NCBI GenBank assembly: GCA_963702425.1
Contig: CAVPCQ010000016.1
Coordinates: forward strand, 96,001-160,000
Length of the DNA stretch: 64,000 nucleotides
From: an uncultured Acidobacteriota bacterium
GTDB taxonomy: Bacteria; Acidobacteriota; Polarisedimenticolia; J045
Direction of reading: 5' to 3'
Shown here: positions 871 through 52,674 of the stretch, in pieces
Layout of the letters: every line of letters starts with the position of its first letter
Position numbering within the stretch: position 1 is the first letter of the stretch
Program-made: the position numbers and the translations under genes
Notes under the pieces: model-generated
Told to the model about the DNA's origin: nothing
The model's input: only the letters and a program-made list of their open reading frames with translations
Database searches by the model: none

Positions 871-3800
871 ATGACGCGCGCGCTCGTCGCCCTGGTGGTG
901 GTGCTCGGCTTCACCTTCACGCTGGGCGGCGAGCCCGCGCTGCTGATCCGGCTCGATCGGCGCGGGCCGTCCGACCTTTCTGCGCTTGCCGCGGACGGTG
1001 TTCCGGTCGTCCTCGATGCCCAGACGCTGCTGCTGGTCCACGGTGACGCTGCGCGACTGGCGTGGCTGCTGGAGCGCGGCTGGAGCGCCTCCGTCGTCGA
1101 CACCGGCCCCGGCCGATGGGACTACGTCCAGGCCGGGCTGCGCGACGACAGCGACATCGGTGCGCTCACGGTCGCCGGGCCGATCGTGATGTCGGCCGAG
1201 AACTGGGTCCTGGTGCGGATCCCGGCCGGCGCATCGCTCGAGCCGCTGACCCGCGCCGGGGCCTTCCTCTACCGGCTCCCGCGGCACGGCATCGCCCCGC
1301 CGCGGGTCCCCTCCGAACCGGCCGAGACGCGCTCCGACTTCGGCTCCCCCGACCCGATCGTTCAGAAGATCGTGTCCGCCGTCAGCCCGGCACAGATCGA
1401 CGACAACTGGCTCGACCTGACCACCAACCCACCGACCGGCACGCGCTTCTCATCCGCACAGGGTTGCCGCGACTCCGCGACCTACTGCCGCGACGTCTTC
1501 GCCGGCCTCGGCCTCGGCGCCGAGCTGCAGAACTGGAGCGTCTCCCACGCGCCGAACGCGATCGGCACCCGCCAGGGGGCGATCGACCCCTCCAAGGTCT
1601 ACATCGTGATCGGACACCTCGACGACCTTCCTTCGAGCGGGCCGGCCCCGGGCGCCGACGACAACGCCTCGGGCACCGTCAACGTCCTCGAGAACGCGCG
1701 CGCGATGAACTGCTGGGCCTTCCGCAACACCGTGAAGTACATCGCCTGTACCGGCGAGGAGCAGGGCCTGCTGGGCTCCGACGCCTACGCCCAGGACGCG
1801 CTGAACCGCGGCGAGGACATCCGCGGCGTGATCAACATGGACATGATCGCGTGGGCCGGGAACAACGCCCCCAATCCGGAGAATCTCGACCTCAACTACA
1901 ACGGCCCGTCCCAGTGGCTGGGCGAGAAGTTCGCCGACGCGGCCACGACGTACGGCACCGGCCTCGTGGTCGACGCCTTCTACTGCCCGTCGCTGACCGC
2001 CTCCGACCACGCCTCGTTCTGGGAGCGCGGCTGGCCGGCCGTCTGCGGGATCACCGACAACGAAGGCTACTGCGGCCACGCCGGGAATTACCCCTACTAC
2101 CACCAGTCGACCGACACGATCGCCAACTGCGGCGACAAGCAGTTCTTCTACTCCGTCGTGAAGACCTCGGCCGCGACGCTGGCGGAGCTCGCCGGGGCGT
2201 TCAAGATCTCGTTCTCGAAGCCGACCTACGCCTGCGGAACGAACCTGACGGTCGTGCTCGGCGATCGCGACAAGGACACCAACCCGGCCACGCGCGAAAC
2301 GGTGGCGGTCGAGGTCTGGAGCGACACCGAGACCGTGCCCGAGACGCTCGTCCTCACCGAGCGCACGGTGCACTCGATGATCTTCGACGCCGTCCTGCCG
2401 ACGACGACCGCCCCCCCGCTCACCGGGGACGGGCTGCTGTCGGTGGCCCCCGGCGACGCGCTTCACGCCCGCTACGTCGACGCGCTCGACTGCGACGGCG
2501 GGACGAACGTCCCCTACCTCGCCGACGCGCGCGTCGACTGCGTCGGCCCGGCGATCTCGGCGGTCGGCACGACGGGGGTCAGCGACACCGCGGCGAGGAT
2601 CGTCTGGACGACCGACGAGGCCTCCGACAGCGTCGCGACCTGGGGACCCGTGAAGCCGCCGGCCACGACGACGCCCGGGAACCGCGACACGACCGCGCAC
2701 GAGGTCAGCCTCTCGGGGCTGCAGTCCTGCACCGTCTACTGGTTCGACACGCGCTCAGCGGACGGCGCCGGCAACCTCGCGCTGGCCGACAACGGCGGCA
2801 CGTACTTCCACTTCGAGACGCTGGGGAACTTCGGCAGCGGGCTGCAGCCCTGCCACGCGGGCCGCGTGTCGATCGACAGGCCGACCTTCGCCTGCTCCGA
2901 GGCGGCGACCTTCCGGGTCACCGACATCGACCTCAACACCAATCCCGGGGTCGCGGAAACGGTGCTGCTCCAGGCCTCGTCGACCACGGAGCCGGCCGGC
3001 GAGTGGATCACGGCGACCGAGACGGGGCCGAACACTTCGGTCTTCGCCGCGTCGATTCCGCTGCAGGCGGGCTCGCCCACGCCCGGCGACGGCGTCGCTG
3101 GCCGTCGCAGACGGCGACACGCTGACCGCGACCTATCGCGACGCCGACGACGGCGCGGGGGCGCGCGCGATCTCGTACGCGACGGCGGCGCTGGACTGCG
3201 CCGGACCGCTCGTCTCGAACCTGCGCGCCGAGGCGATCACCGACGTCCGGGCGACGATCCGCTTCACGACCGCCGAGCCTGGCGACACCGTCGTCGAGTG
3301 GGGCACGACCCCGGCGCTCGGCCAGACGATCACGAACGCTGCGCTCGTGCTCGAGCACGCGGCGACGATCAACCAGGGGAACAGCTGCCAGGCGCTCTAC
3401 TTCCGCGTCCGGTCGAAGGACCAGTTCGGCAACGAGCGGGTCGCCTCGGAGGGGGGCGCGCCGTACCAGCTCCAGGTCGGCCGGATCCCGGGGCTCTACT
3501 GGAAGGAGAGCTTCGAGAGCGGAACGAACGGCTGGACGCTGCAGGGCGACTGGGAGATCGGTGCGCCGCAGGGCAAGGGCGGCTCCGGCGGCGGCCGGCC
3601 CGATCCCGCCGTGGCCTACAACCAGGGCAGGTCGCTCGGCCACGACCTGAGCGGCAAGGGGACCTTCCCCGGCGACTACGAGCCGGGGAGGACGGAGTTC
3701 GCCCGCAGCGCCGCGCTCAACGGCACGACCTGGCAGCGCACGAAACTGCTCTTCCAGCGCCGGCTGAACAGCGGCGCCGGTGACCAGGCCACCGCCTGGA

Positions 3801-4627
3801 TCTACGCGCCGAGCGGCACCAGTTTCTACAACTCGAACAACCTGCCGGTGATCGAAAGCGAATGGTCGCTGCAGAGCATCGACGTGCGCTCGGCGGTCGA
3901 CGGCAAGCCCTCGGTGCAGATCGAGTTCCGCCAGAAGTCCGACGGCGCGGGCAACTTCTCGGGCTGGAACGTCGACGAGATCATCTTCAAGGACGGCGCG
4001 CTGCCCGACTACGGCGCCTGTGGCGGCTGCGGGGCCGCGCCCTCCTTTGCCGGGGCGAGCGGCGCCGTGGACACCGACGCCTGCGGCGCCGGCGGCGTGA
4101 CGGTGTCCTGGCAGCGGAGCGCCGCCTGGGGCTCGGGAGCCGGCGGCAGCTACGCCGTCTACCGCGGGCCGGCTCCCGGTTTCCCGGCCGACGCGGCGCA
4201 CCGCGTCGCGAGCGGCGTGACCGCGCTCGCCACCACCGACGCCGGCGCGCCGGATGGCGCGCTCCACTACCTCGTCCGCGCCGAGAACGACGAAACCTGC
4301 TCGACGGGTCCCGGCAACGGCGGCGTGATGGACGACAACGCCGTCTACGTTCCGGTGACCAACACGGGGGTCCGGCCGCTGCCGGCCGAGGTCCGGACGC
4401 TCGCGGTCTCGATCGTCGGCGGTGCGCACGTCCACCTGGCCTGGAGTCCCGTGGCCGAGGCGCCGCGAACCCGCGTCTACCGCGCGCTGGCGCCGGAGCC
4501 GGGCGGGTTCTCGACGATCGGCGAGAGCACCGGGGCCGCATTCGACGATCTCGGCCAGGGAGCCGACCTCGAGACCTACTTCTACCTGGTGCGCGGCGTC
4601 AACGCCTGCGGCCAGGAAGGCCCCTAG
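871..4627 (+). CDS. Secreted M28 family metallopeptidase with repeated Ig/FN3-like C-terminal domains (frameshift near 3095)
   Basis: Signal peptide; motifs GHLDD, GADDNASG, GEEQGLLGS, NMDMI, SDHASF, YYHQSTD. ORF 856-3783 continues in the frame of 3347-4627. Confidence 0.85.
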
Positions 4628-4638
4628 CGGCGCGCTCG

Positions 4639-5028
4639 ATGACAAAGCGCCCGAACAGGACGATCGATCGCGAGCGGCTGGTCGGCGGCTGGCGGCTCGT
4701 CACCTATGACCACATCGACATACGCGACCGCCGTCGTCCGGCGGCGGCCTGGTTCGACGGTCTCGTCGTCTTCGAGCCCGGCGGCTACCTGACCGTCGTG
4801 ATCAACCGCGACGCGCCTGCCGACCGGCCGCAGGACGGGACGATCGCCTACGGCGCACGGTACGAACTGGACGGCAACACGATCCGCAACGAGGTCCGCG
4901 TCGCGAGCGTGCGCCACTGGGTCGGCACCGTGCTCGAGCGGACCGCGACCCTCGACGGCGACCGGATCACCTTCGCGACCGCGAAGTCCGAATCCGGCCA
5001 CTACGAGCTGATCTGGGAGCGGCTGTAG
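4639..5028 (+). CDS. Lipocalin-like domain protein (Lipocalin_5-like)
   Basis: ATG at 4639; LVGGWRLV...IAYGARYEL...LIWERL pattern, 129 aa. Confidence 0.7.
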   Translation: MTKRPNRTIDRERLVGGWRLVTYDHIDIRDRRRPAAAWFDGLVVFEPGGYLTVVINRDAPADRPQDGTIAYGARYELDGNTIRNEVRVASVRHWVGTVLERTATLDGDRITFATAKSESGHYELIWERL

Positions 5029-5184
5029 GGGCCGGCCTCTGTGCCGGCCCGAAACGGGCCACGCGTTGGCCGGGCCGGCACAGAGGCCGGCCCCTACGGC
5101 GCCACGCGGAACGCGGTCGAGGCGAGCCGGGCCGGCACGGAGGCCGGCCCCTACGGCGCCACGCGGAACGCGGTCGAGGCGAGC
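5025..5184. repeat. GTAG-type REP cluster (inverted pair plus a third copy) containing a 57-bp tandem duplication
   Basis: GTAGGGGCCGGCCTCTGTGCCGGCCC at 5025-5050, its reverse complement at 5072-5097 and again at 5129-5154. 5071-5127 is repeated at 5128-5184 with one mismatch. Confidence 0.85.
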
Positions 5185-7283
5185 AGCCCCGGCGGGCGCG
5201 CGGCGGCGGGCGCTCCGGCCGTGCCGATCGACCCGGCCACCAACTCCGGATCCGCTGCCGTGTCGACGACGGCGAAGGTGTAGTGCCCCTCCGTCAGCGT
5301 GAACTCCGGGATCGTCAATCGCGCCTGCGTGCAGAAGGTCCCCGGGCCGTCCGGCTCGGCCAGCGCCAGCGCCGACTCGGGCATCGGCTGGACCGAGCGG
5401 GCCCCGTCGGGCGCGGTCGAGATCAGCAGGTGACGGACCTTCCGGCGCGCCTCGGCGCGATCCGGCCCGCACAGGACGTAGCTCAGGGACACGCGGTCGC
5501 CCCCGTCGGCCGGTCGCCCCTCGGTCACGACGCGGAACGACCCGCGCCCGCTCTCGCGCTTCGCCGCGGTCATGCCGGGCCGCCACACCAGATCGAGCCC
5601 CGACGCGGCCTCGACCCGCGCCGCCATCGCCGTCCACTCGTCGCGGCCCCCCTTGCGGAACACGACCGTACTCCGACCCGCGCCGGCGGCGTCGGCCTCG
5701 AGATCGGTGATCACGCCGCGCGCGACGTGGATGCCGTCCTTGCGGTAGGCGCAGGGCACCTCGATCGTGAACCCGGCACGGGCCCTGGGCGAAGGCAGCT
5801 TCGGCAGCCGGAGCGCGACCTCGCCGAGCGTCTCGCCGCCGACCTGGCAGACCGGGTCGAGCCCCGCCCCGTTGTCGCGCTGCACCACGGCATCGACGAG
5901 CAGGCGCGCGCCGAAGGTCCCGTCGGAAGCGGGGATCCAGGTCAGCTCGGACAGCGGGACGCGGAAGCGGGCGAGCAGGACCTCCTTCCCCTGGATCGTC
6001 GACGGGTAGTCGAGCATCACGGACACCGGGGGACGAACGAAGTCGTCGGGCGCCAGGAGGGCGGCGACGCGCCGGTGGGTCAGGCGCTCGGCCCGGGCCT
6101 CGATCGCGACCTGCGAGGGGGCCATCACGCGCAGCCCCCAGAGGTCCTTGAAGCGCTCGGTGTCGAGCTTGACCGCGAGAGAGTGGCGTCGCGTCGGACC
6201 GCCCGGCGGGACCGGCAGGCTGAAGAGGTAGTAGCACGAGAGCTGCTCGGCGGCGCCCGCGAGCGCCGCGCCGAGATCGGTGACGTTCCGGACGGCCCGG
6301 CCGCCGGAGTCGTTCGCCAGCGACGAGAGGATCTCCGAGTTTCCGCCCCCGCCGCTCAGCCCCTCGACGTCGACGGTCCAGATCGCGAACCCCTGCTGCG
6401 CGAGGTCGAGCACCGGGCGCAGGGTGCGCTCGAGCTTCTCGGATTCGGCCCCGAGGAAGCGGAAGCGCGGCGAGGAGAAGAGCACCGCCGCCTTGCGGCC
6501 CGGGAGGTGGGTGTGAGCCTGCAGCATCCCCTCCAGCGCGGCCAGCGTCGCCTGCGGGGAGTAGAGCCCGGCGCCGGACGTCGGCGCCGCGCCGGAGGTG
6601 TTGAACTCGAAGCTCTCCGCCCGGAGAGCGGTCGCGGCGGGCATTCAGCCCGAGCAGCCGCCCTTGCCCGAGCCGGCCGCCGCGACGACCGAAAGATCGT
6701 CGCTCGCCAGCACGCCCGCGATCGCGGCCTGGCCGCCGTCCCCGCGGAAGGCGACCGCGCGGATCGCCGCCGCCGCCTCGCGCAGCCGCGCCGGATCGCG
6801 CGTGAAGCCGGCCGTCAGCTCGCGGACCTGGCGGGTCAGGGCGTAGACCTTGTAGACCTCCGGCCGCGCCGCGGCGCCCGCCGCGACGCCGTCGATCGCG
6901 TCCGCGACCTTCGCGCGGCCGCGCGCGTCGACGTAGTTGAAATCGACGATCACGAGGATCGGCCGCGGCATCCCGTCCCCGACCGCGTCGCAGATCGGGT
7001 CGAAGCGCAGCGCCGCGCGCTCTTCCGTCGTCAGCGGCTGGCCGTCGAGCCGGAAGTCGAACTGCTCGGCGGTCAGGCCGGGGACGGACCGGTAGCTGCC
7101 GGCCTTGGGATCGACGACCGAGACGTCGACCTGCACGAGGCGAGCCTCGGCGCGCTCGACGAGATCGGTCGCCGCGTCCGGAGACGGGGCCGCCGGCGCC
7201 TCGGCGGGGCCGGCCCACGCGGCGGGGCACCCCGCCAGGATCGACGCGACGACGAGACGCGAGAAGAACGGTGAAGGCCGCAC
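5151..7283 (-). CDS. Secreted VWA-domain (acidobacterial VWFA-related) protein with in-frame TGA at 6645-6647; probable selenoprotein
   Basis: ORFs 6645-7412 and 5151-6644 are in the same frame, separated only by TGA. VWFA-type motifs lie on both sides: LVQVDVSVVD, VPGLTAEQF, VIVD, FTRD / LPGRKAAVLFS, IWTVDVEGL, LANDSGG, YYL. GTG start at 7283 followed by a signal peptide. Confidence 0.75.
6602..6647 (-). promoter_or_regulatory. Putative bacterial SECIS hairpin directly after UGA
   Basis: m[49 protein letters not shown]: 7-bp stem with a G-starting 4-nt loop 22 nt after UGA; UGAAU can pair with GUUCA. Confidence 0.6.
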
Positions 7284-7469
7284 GGTCTCACCCCCCGGCG
7301 CAGTGCCGCTACACCGTTGGCAGGTTACGCGCCTCCGCGGCCTCCTGTCGAGTGGCATCGGGCTCGGGGACGCGGCCCCCCGCGGACCGGCTGCGAGCGC
7401 GTCCGCCCGCATCCGGGGTTCCCCCGGCGGTGCTTTCCCGGTACATTCCGGCAGCTCGGGGAGGTTCTC

Positions 7470-10400
7470 ATGAGGCCGATGTCCCGCCGTGCGGCGTGCG
7501 CCGCGTCCGTCCTGTTCGCCGTCCTGCTCGCGATCGTATCGGTTCCGCTCGCGTCGGCCGCCGGTTCAGCCGCGGCCCCGACCGGAGCCAAGCTGATGGG
7601 CGACCTGCCCGCGGTGCTCGACGCCGCGGGGCCGGGGGAGCGGATCCCGGTCTACTTCGTGCTCGCCGACCAGCTCGAGGGGGACGCGCTGCGCGCGCGG
7701 GTCGCCGCCCTCACCGCCGGGGCCGCGCCGCCGGCCGGCGCCGCGGGCAAGGCCGCGCGCCGCCAGGCCACCGTGAGCGCGCTGCGCGAGCACGCGACGC
7801 AGGCGCAGGCCGGGCTGCTGGCCGCGCTCCGCGCGCTCGAAGCGCAGGGCGCCGCCGCGCGCGTCCGCCCGCTCTGGATCGGCAACGTCGTCGGCGCCGA
7901 CCTGGCGCCGGACGCGGTCCGCGCGCTCGCGGCGCGGCCGGAGGTCGTGCGCGTCAACTGGAATCCCAAGCGCGACGTCTTCCTCGGCGCGCGCGCGAGT
8001 GCCGGACCGAGCGCCGCGCCGGCCGGCTGGCGCGCCCGCTACGGCCTGTCGCCGCTGGCGCCGGCCGGGACCGACGGCCCGGGCATCGACGCCCTCGAGT
8101 GCGGCGTCGTCAAGATGCGCGCACCCGAGGTCTGGAACGAGCTGGGCAACACCGGGGCCGGGGCCGTGATCGCGGTGATCGACACCGGCGTCTGCTGGAC
8201 CCACCCCGACATCGCGAACCAGATCTGGGTCAACCCGGGCGAGGACCTCAATCACAACGGCGTCGTGATGGACGCTGCCGACATGAACGGCGTCGACAAC
8301 GACGGCAACGGCTTCATCGACGACCTGATCGGCTGGAACTTCGACCTCAACACCAACCAGCCGACCGACGAGAACTCGCACGGCTCGCACTGCGCGGGGA
8401 CGGTGGCGGGGGACGGGACGGGCGGGAGCCAGTCCGGGATGGCGCCGGACGCGAAGATCATGGCGGTGCGGGTCGGGGTCAACTTCTCGGACGAGGTCGA
8501 CGTCTGGAACGCGATGCAGTACGCGGCGGCCAACGGCGCCGACGCGATCTCGATGAGCCTGGGCTGGCCGCACGGCCAGAACCCGGACCGGCCGACCTGG
8601 CGCACGAACTGCGAGAACACGATCAACGCCGGGACGGCGATGGTGATCGCGGCCGGCAACGAAGGCCAGGGCGCGGAGCCGGACAACGTCCGGACGCCGG
8701 GCGACGTGCCGCGGGTGATCACGGTCGGGGCGACCGACTGCAGCGACGTCGCGGCGGGGTTCTCGTCGCGCGGGCCGGTGACCTGGCAGGGGATCGCGCC
8801 GTGGAACGACTGGCCCTGGCCCCCGGGGCTGGTCAAGCCGGACATCTCGGCGCCGGGCGTGGACACACTGAGCCACGACGTCTGCTCGGGTTACTCGTAC
8901 AAGTCGGGAACGTCGATGGCGACGCCGCACGTCGCCGGCGCGGTCGCGCTGATCGTGGCGGCCAACCCCGGGCTCGAGCACGACGACATCAAGGCGCTCT
9001 TGGAAGAGACCTCCGTCGACCTCGGCGAGCCGGGCAAGGACAACACCTACGGCACCGGGCGCGTCGACGTCTACGAGGCGGTGCTGCTCTCCGGCTCGCG
9101 CGACGGGCGGATTGCGGTCAAGGAGCAAGCGGTGCGGTGCGGCGGGTCGCTCAACGTCACCGTCTCGGACACCGATCTCAAGAACTTCGGGACGATCCAG
9201 GTCACGGCCGTCTCGACGACGGAGACCGCACCCGAGAGCATCACGCTGACCGAAACCAATCCCGGCAGCGGCGCCTTCAAGGGCGTGGTCCCGATCGGCG
9301 GCGGCGCGCCGCAGGCCGACGGCGTGGTCCAGGCCGCCGACGGCGACACCGTGACCGTGACCTACGTCGACGCCGACAACGGCGCCGGCGGCCTCAACGT
9401 CCCCAAGTCCGACAGCGCCCCGGTCGACTGCAGCACGCCGCGGATCTCGGGCGTCAGCGCCGAGCCGACGATGACCTACGGCGCGATCATCCGCTGGACC
9501 ACCGACGAGGCGTCCGACAGCCTGGTCGACTACGGCAAGCAGATCCCGCCCGACCGCAGCACCCTCAACGGCGCCCCGACGACGCAGCACCAGGTGACGC
9601 TGACCGGGCTCGAGCAGTGCACGATCTACCGCTACCGGGTCAGCTCGACCGACCGGGTCGGCAACAAGGCGACCGACGACAACGGCGGCGCCTACTACTA
9701 CTTCGAGGTGATGGGCGACTTCGGCCAGGGGCCGCAGTCGTGCCACGCCGGCAAGACGACGCTCGACCGGGCGGTCTACTCCTGCGCCGACACGGCCACG
9801 CTCGAGGTCTCGGACATGGACCTCAACCTCGATCCCGGCGCGATCGACGGCGGCGATGCTGCTGGTCACGAGCACCACCGAGCCGGCGGGCGAATGGATC
9901 GCGGTGACGGAGACCGGCGCCAACAGCTCGCGCTTCCGCGGAACCGTCGCGACTGCCGGCGGGGCGCCCGCGCCCGACGGCCGGCTCCAGCTCGCCGAAG
10001 GCGACACCCTGACGGTCAGCTACCACGACGCCGACGACGGCGTCGGCAACCCCCGCTGGACGCTATGCGACCGCGATCGCCGACTGCGCCGGCCCCCGCA
10101 TCTCGGACCTTCGGATCGACACCATCACCGACGCGCGCGCGACGGTCCGCTTCACGACGGACGAGCCGGCGAGCGCGGTCGTCGAGTGGGGCACGACGCC
10201 GGCGCTGGGTCAGACCACGTCCCGCGCGTCGCTCCAGACGGCGCACGACGATGCTGCTCAACGACTTCAGCTCGTGCCAGCGCGCCTACGTCCGCGTGCG
10301 CGTCACCGACGAGCACGGCTACGAGACCGTGGCCGACAACCTCGGAACGCCGCACGCCTTCAGCCTCGGCCTGATCCCGGGCCTCTACTGGAAGGAGAGC

Positions 10401-11515
10401 TTCGAGGGCTCGACCGCGGGCTGGACGCTGGGCGGCGAGTGGCAGGTCGGCGCGCCGCAGGGCGAAGGGCGGATCGGGCGGCAGTCTCCCCGACCCGACC
10501 AGGGCGTACAACAACGGCAAGGTGCTGGGACACGACCTGACAGGCCTCGGCGGCAACCCGGGGGCCTACGAGCCGAGCCGCACCGAGAAGGCGCGCTCCC
10601 CGAACCAGAATGCGACGACCTGGCACAACACCAGGCTGCTGCTCTACCGCCAGCTCAACGCCGGCGACGGCGACGAGGCCTCGCTCTGGCTGTACGCGGG
10701 CCCGGGCCTCCCGCTGTTCCGCAGCACCGGCGCGGTGATCGAGGGCGACTGGTCGCTCCAGACCTTCGACATCGCGTCGCAGGTGGACGGGAAGCCGGTC
10801 GTCTCGCTCGAGTTCAGCCAGAGGTCGGACGCGTCGGGCCAGTTCTCCGGCTGGAACGTCGACGAGATCGTCTTCAAGGACGGCACCAAGCCCGACTACG
10901 GACCCTGCGGCGGATGCAGCGGGGCGCCCACGTTCAGCGGGGCGGTCTCGGCGCTGGACAACAACGCCTGCGGCGCCGGTGGGGTGACGGTCAGCTGGAC
11001 TGCGGCCCCGGCCTGGGGTACCGGCAGTGCCGGGACCTACGCCGTCTACCGCGACACGACACCCGTCTTCACGCCGTCCGCCGCCAACCGCGTCGCCGCC
11101 GGCCTGGGCGGCCTCTCGTTCAACGACGCCGCGGCCCCGAACGGCGCGCTCTACTACCTCGTGCGCGCGGAGAACGACGAGACCTGCTCCTCCGGCCCGA
11201 ACAACGGGGGGCTCACGGACGCCAACGCGCACACCGTGCCGGTGACGAACACGGCGACCCGCCCGCTGCCGGGCGCGATCGGATCGCTCGCGGTCTCGGT
11301 CGTCGGGGGCAGCCACCTGCGGCTCTCCTGGAGCGCGCCAGCCGACGCCAGCGGCTACCGCATCTACCGCTCGACCTCGCCGCTCCCTGCGTCGTTCGCA
11401 GGCGGTCGGCGACACGGCGGGGCTGACCTGGGACGACACCGGCCGCGCGGCCGATGCGTCGACCTACTTCTACCTGGTCCGCGGGACCAACCCCTGCGGG
11501 CAGGAGGGGCCCTGA
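7470..11515 (+). CDS. Secreted S8 subtilisin-like serine peptidase with the shared Ig/FN3 C-terminal module (several frameshifts, 9850-11420)
   Basis: RBS GGGAGG before ATG 7470; catalytic motifs VIDTG, HGSHCAG, AAGN, SGTSMATPHVAG; ends YFYLVRGTNPCGQEGP-TGA. Confidence 0.88.
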
Positions 11516-49205: not shown

Positions 49206-50483
49206 TCAGCCGTGCGCTCGCCCCAGCACGAGCGCACGCAGTTCCCGCGCCTCCGCCACGCCGTTCCCGCCTGCGGTCCGCCGCCCGTCGGCGCGCGCCG
49301 CCTCCCACCCGGGAACGAGCGCCGCGTCGAAGCGCGGCTCGAAGCGGCGCGCCAGTTCGACCGCCAGCGCCGCACGCGTCGCCGGCGCGCGCCCCGGCGC
49401 GAGCACACCCGCGAGGAAGAGCGCCCCCTGCGCCAGCGCGGCCATCAGGTTCAGCCGCGCGAGGAAGATCGCGTTGGCCTCCGGAACGAAGGTCGCGCCG
49501 CGCGCCTCGGCCGCCGCAAGCGCTCCGTCCACGGGGGTCGCGAGGGCCCGCGTGCCGGCCAGCCAACGGACGAACCGGGCGCGCTCGTGGGGCCCGAAGA
49601 CAACCGGGAAGAGGTCCGCCAACCAGCGTGCGCGTCCCGCGCGCGTGCCTCGCGGGTCGATCCCGACCCCCTGTGCCAGCGCGTCGATCAGGCCGTGCAC
49701 GAACAGCGGCACGTCCAGGTCGGGAGCCGGCGAATCCTCGCGCGCCCAGCGCCGCACGACGCGCGAGAACGCGGGGACGCGGCACCCCGGCGCGGCGCGC
49801 CGGCGCTCCAGGGTCCCCTTCCCCGCGCGCCGCCAGCCCGTGCCGGCCGCGTCGCCGTCGAGGTCGTGAAAGACGCGGACCAGCGCCTCGCCGCCGATTC
49901 CGTGCCGCGAGAGAGCGTGCGGCAGGTGCGGGGCGGCGAGGTGCGCTTCGCCGAAGACGACGATCACCGTACCCTGCGGTCCGAGCGTCTCGGCCAGCGC
50001 GGCGATCCGCTCGGCGGCGACGCGGTCGCGGCGCGCCAGGCTCTCGACCCCGCCGCGCGGCGGCAGGTCGAGCCCGAGCGCCGGCACGCCGTGCGCGCGG
50101 GCGCACCGCAGCAGCCGCGCCGATGCGGCCCACGGATAGCCCCATTCCTCTTCGTAACGAATCAGCCGCCGCAGTTCGGCCGCGCCGACGCCGCCGGAGA
50201 GGTAGCGATCGAGCGCGGCCTGGTCGCGCGCGTGGACCATCTCGAGTCCGAGCGCGAGCGGCCGCGCCGCGAGCCGGTGGACCAGCGCGACCGCGGTCTC
50301 GAGCGCCGAGGGGAGCGCGTGAAACTCGCCGAGCAGCACGACCCGCGCGCGGCGCACGGTCGCCAGCGCCTCGGCCGCGCGGCCGCGCGCGAATCGCAGG
50401 CCGCGGACTTCGCGGTGGAAGCGGCGGACGTAGGGGGATCCGGCGACCGGATCGAGGTCGACGGGCAGGTCGGAGGCGCTCAG
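49206..50483 (-). CDS. ChaN/EreA-like family protein (start codon uncertain)
   Basis: [15 protein letters not shown]...[11 protein letters not shown]...A, VVFGEAH. Confidence 0.6.
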
Positions 50484-50677
50484 CGCGGGCTGTCCTTGCG
50501 TGAATCGTCGGCGGGTCCGTTGGTGGAGTCGCCCGAGGCCCCGTCCTTCATCGAGTTGCGGAAGTTCTTGATCCCCTCCCCGAGGCCGCGTCCCAACGCC
50601 GGGAGCTTCGACACGCCGAAGAGCAGGACGACGATCACGAGAATCAGCAGCAGTTCGGGGAAGCCGAGATTGGGCAT
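50480..50677 (-). CDS. tatA: Twin-arginine translocase TatA/TatE subunit
   Basis: [37 protein letters not shown]. Confidence 0.92.
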
Positions 50678-50736
50678 GAGCCGTCTCCTCCCTTTCATTA
50701 TGGGGCAAGCGGGGTGGATCCGCCCTGCCGCTCGGC

Positions 50737-52674
50737 TCAGCGCGGGGGCCGGACCTTCCGCTCGTTGCCGATCCGCTGGGTCACGGCCTCGGCATCGAGC
50801 TTCTCGAGCAGTGGAATGGCGTACTTCCGGCTGATCCCGAACAGCTCCTTGAAGGTCGCGACGTCGATCGTCGCGCGGCCGGCCGCCGCTTCGTCACGCA
50901 GGGTCCGCACCACCCGCTCCCACGCGCCGCCGCCGAGCCAGAGGCTCTCCTTGAGCTTGATCGCCTCGCCCCGGCGGGCGGCGAAGGCGAGCAACTGCCG
51001 CGCAGCGGGGCCGCCGCCGAGCCGGGCCAGGAGATCGGCCTCCGGCAGCGCCTCGAAGGCGGCCGCATCCAGCGCGCTCTTGACCGAGGCAAGCCGCTCG
51101 GCCTGCTCCCCTTCGGGCACGGCCCGGTGGCTCGCGAGGCGGACCGCGTCGGGTCGCACCGCAATCGCGCCGCGGGCCTCGAGCCGCGCCAGCAGGCCGC
51201 GAAACTGCTCGGCGCTCCACCCCGGCGCCATGGCGCCGCGCAGCCGCTCGGGAGCCGGGCCGTCCTCGAGCGGCCGGTCGGCATGAGCCCGGGCCAGTTC
51301 CTCGGTGATCCGCGAGAAGAGCGTCTCGCGCGCCGGCACCGAGACGACCCGGTCCCCCTCGAGCAGCACCACCCGAGCCGCCGCGGCCGGGGCCTGCTCC
51401 AGCTCCGCCGCAGCCGCCCGGGCCGCCGCGCGGGTCAGCCCCAGGCGCACCGCGCGCTCGGCCAGATCGACGCCCTCGGGGCCGGCATCGTGCGTGGCGC
51501 GCGCCAGCCGCCCGGCCGGTGTGGCGCGCGCCAGTTCCTCCGTGCGCTGCGGCCACGCCGGATCGTCCCGCCGCCGACGTGGCGGATCGAGGTCGACCAC
51601 GATCCCGCCGCCCAGCGTCGTCACCGGGCTGTAACGGCGCAGGATGAAGCGATCGCCGGGGAGGGCGGCGAGCGGCGCTTCCAGGCGGATCTGCGCTGCG
51701 CCGCGCGCCCCCGGCGCGAGCGGCCGTTCGCGCGGCAACCGCAGGCGCCCCAGCACCTCGGCCGTCCCGTGGTGCACCCGCACGCGCTGCTCGTCCTCCA
51801 GCGGCGCGGGCGCGTCCGCGGTCACCTCGACCAGTGCGTCGAAGACCAGGGTGACCGGCCCGAGCCCGGGCGGAACCAGCACCATCCCGCGCTGGAGCCG
51901 CTCGCGGTCGACCCCCTGGAGGTTCACCGCGACCCGCCGCTGCGGGCCGGCGACCTCGACCGCCGCGCCGTGGACTTGCAGCCCGCGGATCTTCCCGGTC
52001 GGGCCGCCGGGCACCGCTTCGAGCGGTTCGCCGACACTCAGCGCGGCCCCCTGCAGCGTCCCGGTGACGATCGTGCCGAAGCCGCGCGCGGCGAAGACGC
52101 GATCGACCGGGAGTCGCGCCCACGGCCCCGCGGCGCGCTCGGGGAGCCGCGCGGCGACGGCCACGAGCGCCTCGCGCAGCGCGTCGAGCCCGCGGCCGGT
52201 GATGCCGCTCACCGGGATCACCGGGGCCCCCTCGAGGAAGCTCCCCGCCACCAGCTCGCGGACCTCCTCCGCGACCAGCTCGAGCATCCCCTCCTCGACC
52301 AGGTCGCTGCGCGTGATCGCCACCAGTCCCCCCGGGATCCCGAGCAGCCGGCAGATCGCGAGGTGCTCCCTCGTCTGCGGCATCACCGACTCGTCGGCGG
52401 CCACGACGAGCAGCACGAGATCGATCCCGGTCGCGCCCGCGAGCATGTTGTGCACGAAGCGCTCGTGCCCCGGCACGTCGACGAACGAGACCACGACCTC
52501 GCCGATCCGCGCCGGCGCGAAACCGAGATCGATCGTGATCCCGCGCTCCTTCTCCTCCGGCAGGCGGTCGGGATCGATCCCCGTCAGCGCGCGGACGAGC
52601 GTCGACTTGCCGTGATCGATGTGACCGGCGGTGCCGACGACGACGTGGCGCAGGGTTTCGGTGGCGTCGCTCAC
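50737..52674 (-). CDS. selB: Selenocysteine-specific translation elongation factor
   Basis: [41 protein letters not shown]-terminal winged helix [10 protein letters not shown]. Confidence 0.95.

Follow-up and report, generated by a model that had tools for sequence, protein, structure and literature searches.

A candidate selenoprotein with a VWA-like domain and a C-x-x-U motif in an uncultured Acidobacteriota bacterium

A reading frame with a single in-frame TGA

We analyzed a 64,000-nt stretch of DNA, referred to here as the window, from a metagenome-assembled genome of an uncultured Acidobacteriota bacterium (GCA_963702425.1, contig CAVPCQ010000016.1; G000 C16:96001-160000), and within it a minus-strand gene that is a candidate for encoding a selenocysteine (Sec)-containing protein with a VWA-like domain. 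Labels beginning with G denote genomes (G000 being that of the window), L loci, P database proteins, and X public sequencing runs. The G000 assembly comprises 5.1 Mb in 42 contigs with 71% G+C, and is 91% complete with 5.85% contamination. The complete coding sequence (5151–7283, minus strand) starts with GTG at 7283 and ends with TAG at 5151–5153, and its 710 codons include a single TGA at 6645–6647, corresponding to residue 213. Mechanical listing of open reading frames (ORFs) yields two halves (6645–7412 and 5151–6644), and database entries hold the gene as two truncated proteins of 212 and 497 aa, with P0002 and P0016 being the window gene's own halves in the protein collection.

The minus-strand context of the TGA is GGC TGC TCG GGC TGA ATG CCC, and the read-through product around the site is ...GSGKGG-C-S-G-U-M-P-AATALRAES..., in which the partner of the proposed Sec is Cys210 (codon TGC, 6654–6656, minus strand). 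The original prediction, made from the window alone, had drawn attention to this run of codons with the frame open on both sides, and the 710-residue frame with one TGA bears it out. Just downstream is a hairpin (6612–6629, minus strand), a proposed bacterial selenocysteine insertion sequence (bSECIS), in which a 5′ arm GCUCUCC (6623–6629) and a 3′ arm GGAGAGC (6612–6618) form a perfect 7-bp stem around the loop GGGC (6619–6622). The stem begins 15 nt and the G-first loop 22 nt after the UGA, as first described.

The TGA lies within one domain, as had also been proposed. One continuous match to NCBIfam TIGR03436 (acidobact_VWFA, "VWA domain-containing protein") covers residues 44–355 (6219–7154, minus strand) and profile positions 4–289 of 324, running across the TGA, which is located between the FTRD (160–163) and LPGRK (260–264) motifs in a hypervariable insert (residues ~180–242) that carries the Sec motif. 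This match, at 67 bits (curated cut-off 81.25), was the sole NCBIfam match at E ≤ 0.1, with no selenoprotein-specific model matching the protein in that scan, and a Pfam scan of the read-through protein at the same threshold returned no families, neither VWA nor any for the C-terminal region. An AlphaFold2 model built from a 60-sequence alignment (mean predicted local distance difference test score [pLDDT] 86.1, predicted template modeling score 0.86) has a low-confidence N-terminus, a small beta unit, an alternating strand/helix region at 107–358, and an all-beta region at 365–708. Foldseek searches against the PDB with this model recovered the VWA structures 4fx5 (probability 0.96), 5nus p44 (1.00), 6fpy ITIH1 (1.00), and integrins, at template modeling scores of 0.15–0.19 on the query, which are low as the whole multi-domain model was used as the query. 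The C-terminal beta-sandwich (Ig-like) region, residues 365–708 (5160–6191, minus strand), is nearly all strands, mostly with pLDDT >90, and matched Ig-like folds, transglutaminase C-terminal barrels, and RbmA.

From inspection of the translation we infer a cleavable Sec-pathway signal peptide comprising residues 1–24 (MRPSPFFSRLVVASILAGCPAAWA, followed by G; 7212–7283, minus strand), with which the protein would act in the envelope or outside the cell. Orthologues share the basic, hydrophobic, AxA layout of this signal-peptide-like N-terminus, and residues 1–37 of the model have pLDDT <50. The signal peptide also includes a lipobox-like L-A-G-C (7226–7237, residues 16–19). Lipidation there is doubtful because the cysteine is not kept in the orthologues P0003 and P0004.

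Conservation of the TGA, the hairpin, and the selenocysteine machinery

Orthologues with one TGA each were found in G003 and G001 (81% and 80% identity, same genus as G000) and in G015 (54%, another genus), and a metagenome contig, L063 (48%), also carries a TGA, reading ...HSGCSG-U-LPAPSSLQLEAE. The TGAs of all five assemblies (G000, G001, G003, G015, and L063) occupy one alignment column. Neither the orthologue of G004 (83%) nor a tandem paralogue in G015 (53%) has a TGA, and relatives at 30%–47% identity are uninterrupted, with both halves conserved. Scans of metagenomes and of a genome collection returned six loci each, of which one Sec form (L063) and one non-Sec form (L062) were new. A further TGA, in G001:C176, was rejected as the ordinary terminal stop of a paralogue. 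A weak match in G034:C102 (26 bits) also contains one TGA and is used for no conclusion here. The Sec form and non-Sec paralogue of G015 (G015:C15:44778-46799 and 49341-51416; L027 and L054) are located ~2.5 kb apart on the same strand, at 53%–54% identity to the query.

Protein databases hold the same break point. In a collection of 5.8 billion proteins, all seven matches of 116–371 aa to the N-terminal half stop exactly at the TGA position, ending in ...GGCSG (P0002, which is the window's own, P0003, P0004, and P0005), ...ACGSSG (P0006 and P0007), or ...PACFSG (P0008). Among 1.84 billion representatives at 50% identity, the best 150 of 221 matches include 10 N-terminal fragments of 185–230 aa, 9 of which end in C-x(2-4)-stop (CSG in P0004, P0076, P0080, P0085, P0088, P0089, and P0093; CGSSG in P0006; CFSG in P0008), the exception being P0084, which ends in SVGG. 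Together these give 15 Sec-type sequences (12 CSG-U, 2 CGSSG-U, and 1 CFSG-U), all 15 with a cysteine two to four residues before the stop. A C-terminal fragment, P0043, begins with MPSPASLQLEAD and is of the L063 type.

The original prediction depended on the TGA being genuine, and its letters are identical in contigs of two public runs from two studies (X1 and X2), either of which may be the source sample. Record 5 of X1 spans 6499–6812 with three differences (at 6516, 6576, and 6579), none in the TGA, and record 18 of X2 spans 6484–6692 with none. Contigs of X19, which we guess to be an RNA run, cover 6329–6638 and 6679–6829 without bridging the TGA, and say nothing on expression. A nonsense mutation in a pseudogene, or an assembly or sequencing error, might be suspected given the origin, completeness, and contamination of the assembly and the disrupted-looking frame of the neighboring S8 peptidase. 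Such an explanation is effectively refuted by the same TGA in five independent assemblies at 48%–81% protein identity with both halves intact, by the ten further truncated proteins from other sources, and by the contigs of the two runs.

The hairpin is conserved along with the TGA. In the five DNA sequences it lies in the same columns with a UGA-to-loop distance of 22 nt, and 34 of 35 cells are paired (7-bp stems, 6 bp in G015). L063 has changes on both sides at three of the seven pairs (G-C to A-U, C-G to G-C, and U-A to C-G), and the peptide encoded at the hairpin differs there as well (SLQLEA vs ALRAES). In slid controls, with the partner moved by 1–3 columns, 40%–60% of cells pair, and the observed covariation score was reached by 5 of 500 shuffles. 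It has been proposed that a bSECIS element has a loop of 3–9 nt, a stem of 4–16 bp, a G in the first two loop positions, a UGA-to-loop distance of 16–37 nt, and a minimum free energy ≤ –7.5 kcal/mol (PMC13188914), and the hairpins of all five sequences, with loops GGGC (three times), CGUGCC, and AGUU and 42-nt segments at –14.0 to –16.3 kcal/mol, satisfy this model. The Ala codon GCT in the 5′ arm is kept in the four ALRAES sequences, and GCT accounts for 4 of the 116 Ala codons in the gene.

All four genes for Sec synthesis and insertion were detected in G000 above curated cut-offs, as the original prediction would entail: selA (507 bits), selC (tRNA-Sec, 70.8 bits), selD (340 bits, with its own in-frame TGA), and selB, which is located in the window (50749–52644, minus strand; G000:C16:146749-148644; TIGR00475, 313.2 bits vs a cut-off of 242.25) and encodes the Sec-specific elongation factor, the proposed trans-acting partner of the hairpin. 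Each of the 23 genomes of the taxonomic family carries selA. A crude scan of G000 for in-frame TGAs between strongly coding frames gave 108 candidates, mostly ordinary gene ends, and four of these, with TGA read as U, match Pfam families of the published catalogue, namely peroxiredoxin (FTFVU), a peroxiredoxin-like redoxin (WSPGUAGC), a thioredoxin-like protein (YTPGUGAC), and DUF1573 (KPGUGC). Outside the window, TGAs at classic positions occur at C37:238451(+) (peroxiredoxin), C18:167809(+) (peroxiredoxin-like), C40:119439(+) (thioredoxin-like), C5:41377(–) (DUF1573), and C16:54520(+) (SelD, NCAGU). The UGAs of the peroxiredoxin, thioredoxin-like, and DUF1573 genes are followed by stems of 7–8 bp with loops of 3–5 nt. 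The peroxiredoxin-like gene has only a 6-bp stem and a loop without G, and the upper stem of selD measures 5 bp and carries the loop GUCC. No match to formate dehydrogenase alpha (TIGR01553), the selenoprotein that is most widespread in bacteria, was obtained in the 91%-complete G000 at E ≤ 1e-20.

Another possibility is that the UGA is read through without selenium, with a near-cognate tRNA inserting Trp, Cys, or Arg under stimulation by the hairpin to give the full-length protein. This would fit a frame that is continuous and conserved and homologues that tolerate Pro or Ala at the site. It would, however, leave aside the complete Sec machinery and the at least five other UGA genes of known selenoprotein families in the genome, the bSECIS spacing and small G-first loop of the hairpin, and the adjacent conserved cysteine, which creates a CxxU pattern of the kind that is typical of selenoproteins (Table 1, PMC13188914). 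For any ordinary residue a sense codon would be simpler, and lineages without the UGA have also dropped the cysteine (except P0015), with the hairpin decayed. We therefore regard selenium-free read-through as very improbable.

The UGA could instead be a real stop in a conserved split gene, producing an exported 212-aa fragment that ends in ...CSG and a 497-aa protein made by termination-reinitiation at the adjacent AUG, with the hairpin serving pausing or coupling rather than SelB. An ATG does directly follow the TGA in G000, G001, G003, and G015, gene callers output exactly these two proteins, and no homologue examined has Cys at the Sec position. On the other hand, the codon after the TGA in L063 is CTG, not ATG. 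A split at this point would bisect one domain, given the single TIGR03436 stretch and the one confident fold that AlphaFold2 builds from both halves, and would export the N-terminal half but leave the 497 C-terminal residues without a signal peptide. Neither the conserved cysteine two to four residues before the stop nor its joint loss with the TGA would have a role, and the hairpin fits bSECIS geometry and resembles those of the peroxiredoxin, thioredoxin-like, DUF1573, and selD genes of the same genome. A split gene is thus improbable.

Taken as a whole, the gene very probably encodes a single exported selenoprotein of 710 residues. On the comparative evidence and established SelB/SECIS biology, SelB and Sec-tRNA(Sec) would decode UGA213 as Sec, and the 7-bp hairpin with its 4-nt G-first loop would direct this decoding. 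The conserved TGA, the hairpin with its compensatory changes, and the sel genes likewise support the exported VWA-like selenoprotein of ~710 aa with CxxU and SECIS that was originally put forward.

Relatives without the TGA and the proposed role of the motif

The original prediction had expected homologues with a TGA or Cys aligned at this position and a conserved hairpin. The TGA and the hairpin were recovered, whereas the aligned Cys was not. Close full-length homologues (P0009–P0014) read GGGG-[ILF]-[SA]-x-P-L-P, P0015 reads GGCSG-P-MS, and L054 reads LGSSG-A-LP. P0011 is the non-Sec orthologue of G004 (also L025), and L062 is apparently P0010, an identification based only on shared residues near the site. 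The Sec column thus holds Pro in P0009–P0015, G004, and L062 and Ala in L054, and the partner cysteine is lost in P0009–P0014, G004/L025, L062, and L054, with P0015 alone retaining it. In the corresponding hairpin arms, four of seven positions pair in G004, four of seven in L054, and six of seven in L062. Further out in the family, full-length members carry inserts that are unrelated and have no conserved cysteine. The sole possible Cys form is P0048, with KCRSGCGCGGC at a compatible spacing, and BLAST does not align its CRSGC with CSGU.

Several observations weigh against decoding of the UGA as Sec. First, no Cys is found at the Sec column in ten close full-length homologues (P0009–P0015, P0018, P0021, and P0022), in L054, or in 51 full-length representatives, and the accessible text of the deep-Sep paper indicates that Cys homologues exist for nearly all accepted families of selenoproteins (PMC12013277). 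Second, of the 85,254 TGA trinucleotides in the genome, 1,703 (2.0%) precede a perfect hairpin that has bSECIS geometry and 7 bp or more, 5.9% precede one of 6 bp or more, and the hairpin of the gene is no more stable than shuffled sequences (z of –1.27 for 76 nt and +0.11 for 42 nt), so that taken alone it is weak evidence and no more than chance; its significance comes from conservation in other genomes. That conservation involves only five sequences, with all three compensatory pairs from one lineage (L063), and an Rfam scan of 5000–7500 at E ≤ 1 gave no SECIS family, only four sub-threshold chance matches. Third, DNA shows the stop codon directly in 5 of the 15 Sec-type sequences, whereas for the other 10 it is deduced from the protein end, and a UGA directly followed by ATG in G000, G001, G003, and G015 (the ALRAES sequences) suits a stop and restart too. 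The motif is also located in a hypervariable, partly low-confidence insert (pLDDT <50 at 180–197 and 231–239). Selenium incorporation here is a prediction from sequence comparison.

The first of these points bears most directly on the original prediction, for which a non-Cys residue in homologues would have counted as grounds for rejection, and Pro or Ala is what those homologues have. We judge that the lack of Cys homologues is outweighed, because the upstream cysteine and the hairpin pairing are lost together with the TGA. The redox- or selenium-switched adhesion or scaffold protein that the original prediction also suggested is a more speculative proposal; the domain has a score under the TIGR03436 cut-off, no Pfam VWA match, and no canonical metal ion-dependent adhesion site (MIDAS).

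The Sec and non-Sec forms are interspersed. On a quick tree (N-terminal 152 columns, 73 rows, none dropped), which is short and leaves many forks open, the 15 Sec-type rows are scattered, with parsimony giving 10 changes and well-supported branches forcing at least 5. Sec and non-Sec members occur together in several small clades with good support (L063 with P0034; G015a and P0007 with G015b; G000 with P0011). To us this scatter suggests that an older Sec module was lost repeatedly, not that it was gained repeatedly. For G004, we considered whether genome-wide loss of the Sec trait accounts for its non-Sec form, and rejected this; G004 retains the TGA in selD and peroxiredoxin, so the loss there is gene-specific. 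In G004, selA is present as two adjacent pieces (G004:C4:1016061-1017270; profile positions 2–207 and 208–409), suggesting a frameshift. Because of the same retained TGAs, an assembly indel in this five-contig genome seems likelier than loss of the trait.

The subfamily is small and narrowly distributed: of the 1.84 billion representatives searched, 221 match at E ≤ 0.001, and 72 do so at E ≤ 1e-30. Within the class, it occurs in 22 of the 23 genomes of one taxonomic family vs 0 of the 96 others (E ≤ 1e-40). Related loci come from records titled as metagenome-assembled genomes of Acidobacteria or Acidobacteriota, and the runs with near-identical contigs are labeled as freshwater and sediment metagenomes.

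The canonical MIDAS metal site of VWA domains is DxSxS...T...D. In the window protein the DxSxS position, after strand 107–114, reads D114-F-N116-Y-V118, with D114 invariant and N116 nearly so in the 60 sequences, and S-S stands in place of D-G after strand 264–270, from which it is predicted that the canonical site is not present in this VWA-like domain. The Sec lies in the insert between helix 164–178 and helix 243–256, an insert of 43–176 aa among the 51 full-length relatives, where residues 211–220 have a pLDDT of 86 and Sec213 is placed between a short strand (209–210) and helix 216–229. Combining the model with general VWA topology, Cys210 and Sec213 would immediately precede a helix N-terminus, in the insert between alpha2 and alpha3 of a MIDAS-degenerate domain, a position that we take to be on the expected ligand-binding face.

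From these features, the predicted role of the Cys-x-x-Sec pair is an accessory one, in redox chemistry or metal binding. Provided that Sec is inserted, Cys210 and Sec213 might join in a reversible selenenylsulfide or bind a soft metal, serving a scaffold- or adhesion-type protein as an accessory module and not as an indispensable catalytic center, a proposal to which we give somewhat less than an even chance. The module would have been discarded repeatedly, with Sec and mostly Cys giving way to non-redox residues and the rest of the protein kept; because Cys forms are absent and the clean deletions recur, the module would be dispensable. The same pattern suggests that Cys is not a useful substitute for Sec here. 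A more specific version is that sulfur is unable to replace selenium, the C-x-x-U on the MIDAS-equivalent face of a MIDAS-less VWA domain being a selenium-based site that replaces the metal site. On the exported scaffold protein of these sediment Acidobacteriota, it would capture a thiol-bearing ligand covalently, as a selenenylsulfide, or bind a soft metal or metalloid with high affinity, and lineages unable to afford selenium would delete the whole module with no Cys downgrade. We consider this version unlikely but worth stating.

Comparison with known selenoproteins and neighboring sequence

A 2026 review lists 119 prokaryotic selenoprotein families and subfamilies (Table 1, PMC13188914), none of which is a VWA or TIGR03436 entry, in agreement with the earlier statement that VWA proteins are not a known selenoprotein family. 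The terms Willebrand, VWA, and Acidobacteri are absent from that review and from the main text of the BSepDB paper (PMC13326102), and a full-text literature search returned nothing relevant on selenoproteins with VWA or von Willebrand, on TIGR03436, or on selenocysteine in Acidobacteriota. In the accessible text of the deep-Sep paper, one Acidobacteriota genome was tested and gave 0 new selenoprotein genes, and its authors note that the method may miss selenoproteins without Cys homologues (PMC12013277). The comparisons above make a well-supported case for a new bacterial selenoprotein family that belongs to no catalogued family and is unusual in having no Cys counterparts.

Bacterial genes decoded through SelB and bSECIS, such as the peroxiredoxin, thioredoxin-like, DUF1573, and SelD genes of G000, have the same layout as the gene described here: an in-frame UGA within a conserved frame, a hairpin just downstream with a 7-bp stem, a 4-nt G-first loop, and a UGA-to-loop distance of 22 nt, a Cys two residues away (CxxU), and selA, selB, selC, and selD in the genome. 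The gene differs from them in belonging to a VWA-like family without Cys homologues, and in that its Sec would be in a hypervariable insert of a non-enzymatic-looking fold instead of a conserved active site. TIGR03436 is its best and only family match, and alternating strands and helices in the model, Foldseek matches to VWA structures at low template modeling scores, and an Acidobacteriota origin by record titles are in keeping with such domains. By contrast, the sub-cut-off score, the lack of a Pfam VWA match, and D114-F-N-Y-V in place of DxSxS set it apart, and it forms a small separate subfamily.

The closest parallels in kind are predicted non-enzyme envelope selenoproteins, including a TonB-dependent receptor (FCYXU), an MtrB/PioB-family outer-membrane protein, a DUF1573 protein, and the ABC substrate-binding SaoB/SaoX (PMC13188914), which are likewise exported or in the envelope, are not classical oxidoreductases, and often have Sec beside Cys, but are of other folds and families. 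DUF1573 with a UGC motif is also present in G000. The new deep-Sep families, TonB-dependent receptor included, all have Cys homologues according to the accessible text (PMC12013277), whereas the VWA-like family has none.

A further resemblance, offered as a lead only, is to mammalian thioredoxin reductase, which has a C-terminal Gly-Cys-Sec-Gly redox motif. Both place Cys and Sec close together in an exposed segment rich in Gly and Ser (GGCSGU), with a selenenylsulfide possible. The spacing here is C-x-x-U, or in some lineages C-x3-U or C-x4-U; the position is internal, and there is no flavoprotein domain.

If the prediction is true, it would bring a fold class, that of an exported multi-domain scaffold with a VWA-like domain, into the bacterial selenoproteome and would be the first concrete selenium-dependent envelope protein in Acidobacteriota of freshwater and sediment metagenomes. 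It would also expose a blind spot in discovery pipelines, which lean on pairs of Sec and Cys homologues. The absence of Cys homologues probably explains why the gene is annotated as two "hypothetical proteins" of ~210 and ~497 aa, the name that NCBI gives to one truncated half, and at least 15 database entries would need merging and corrected annotation. Repeated loss of the Sec-Cys module, with no Cys taking the place of Sec, from genomes whose SelD and peroxiredoxin still contain Sec (G004) would amount to a natural experiment on when selenium repays its cost.

No operon context was found for the VWA-like gene, which is flanked by a divergent S8 peptidase gene and a convergent gene (4639–5028, plus strand) for a small lipocalin-like protein (PF13924, 38 bits). 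It appears to be monocistronic because this downstream neighbor is convergent. A 57-nt unit (window 5069–5184) occurs twice in tandem with a 98% match, duplicating the last 11 codons of the VWA-like gene, its TAG, and a G+C-rich terminator-like arm, and the second copy pairs with an inverted copy near 5025–5046, between the two convergent genes. The divergent subtilase gene (7317–11426, plus strand; Peptidase_S8, 192 bits) has an Arg-rich, apparently out-of-frame translation after ~870 residues. An ORF at 3347–4627 (plus strand) has a ...PGLYWKESFE..GWTL.G.W..GAPQG... segment in common with the subtilase, which suggests either frame disruption or a paralogous C-terminal domain.

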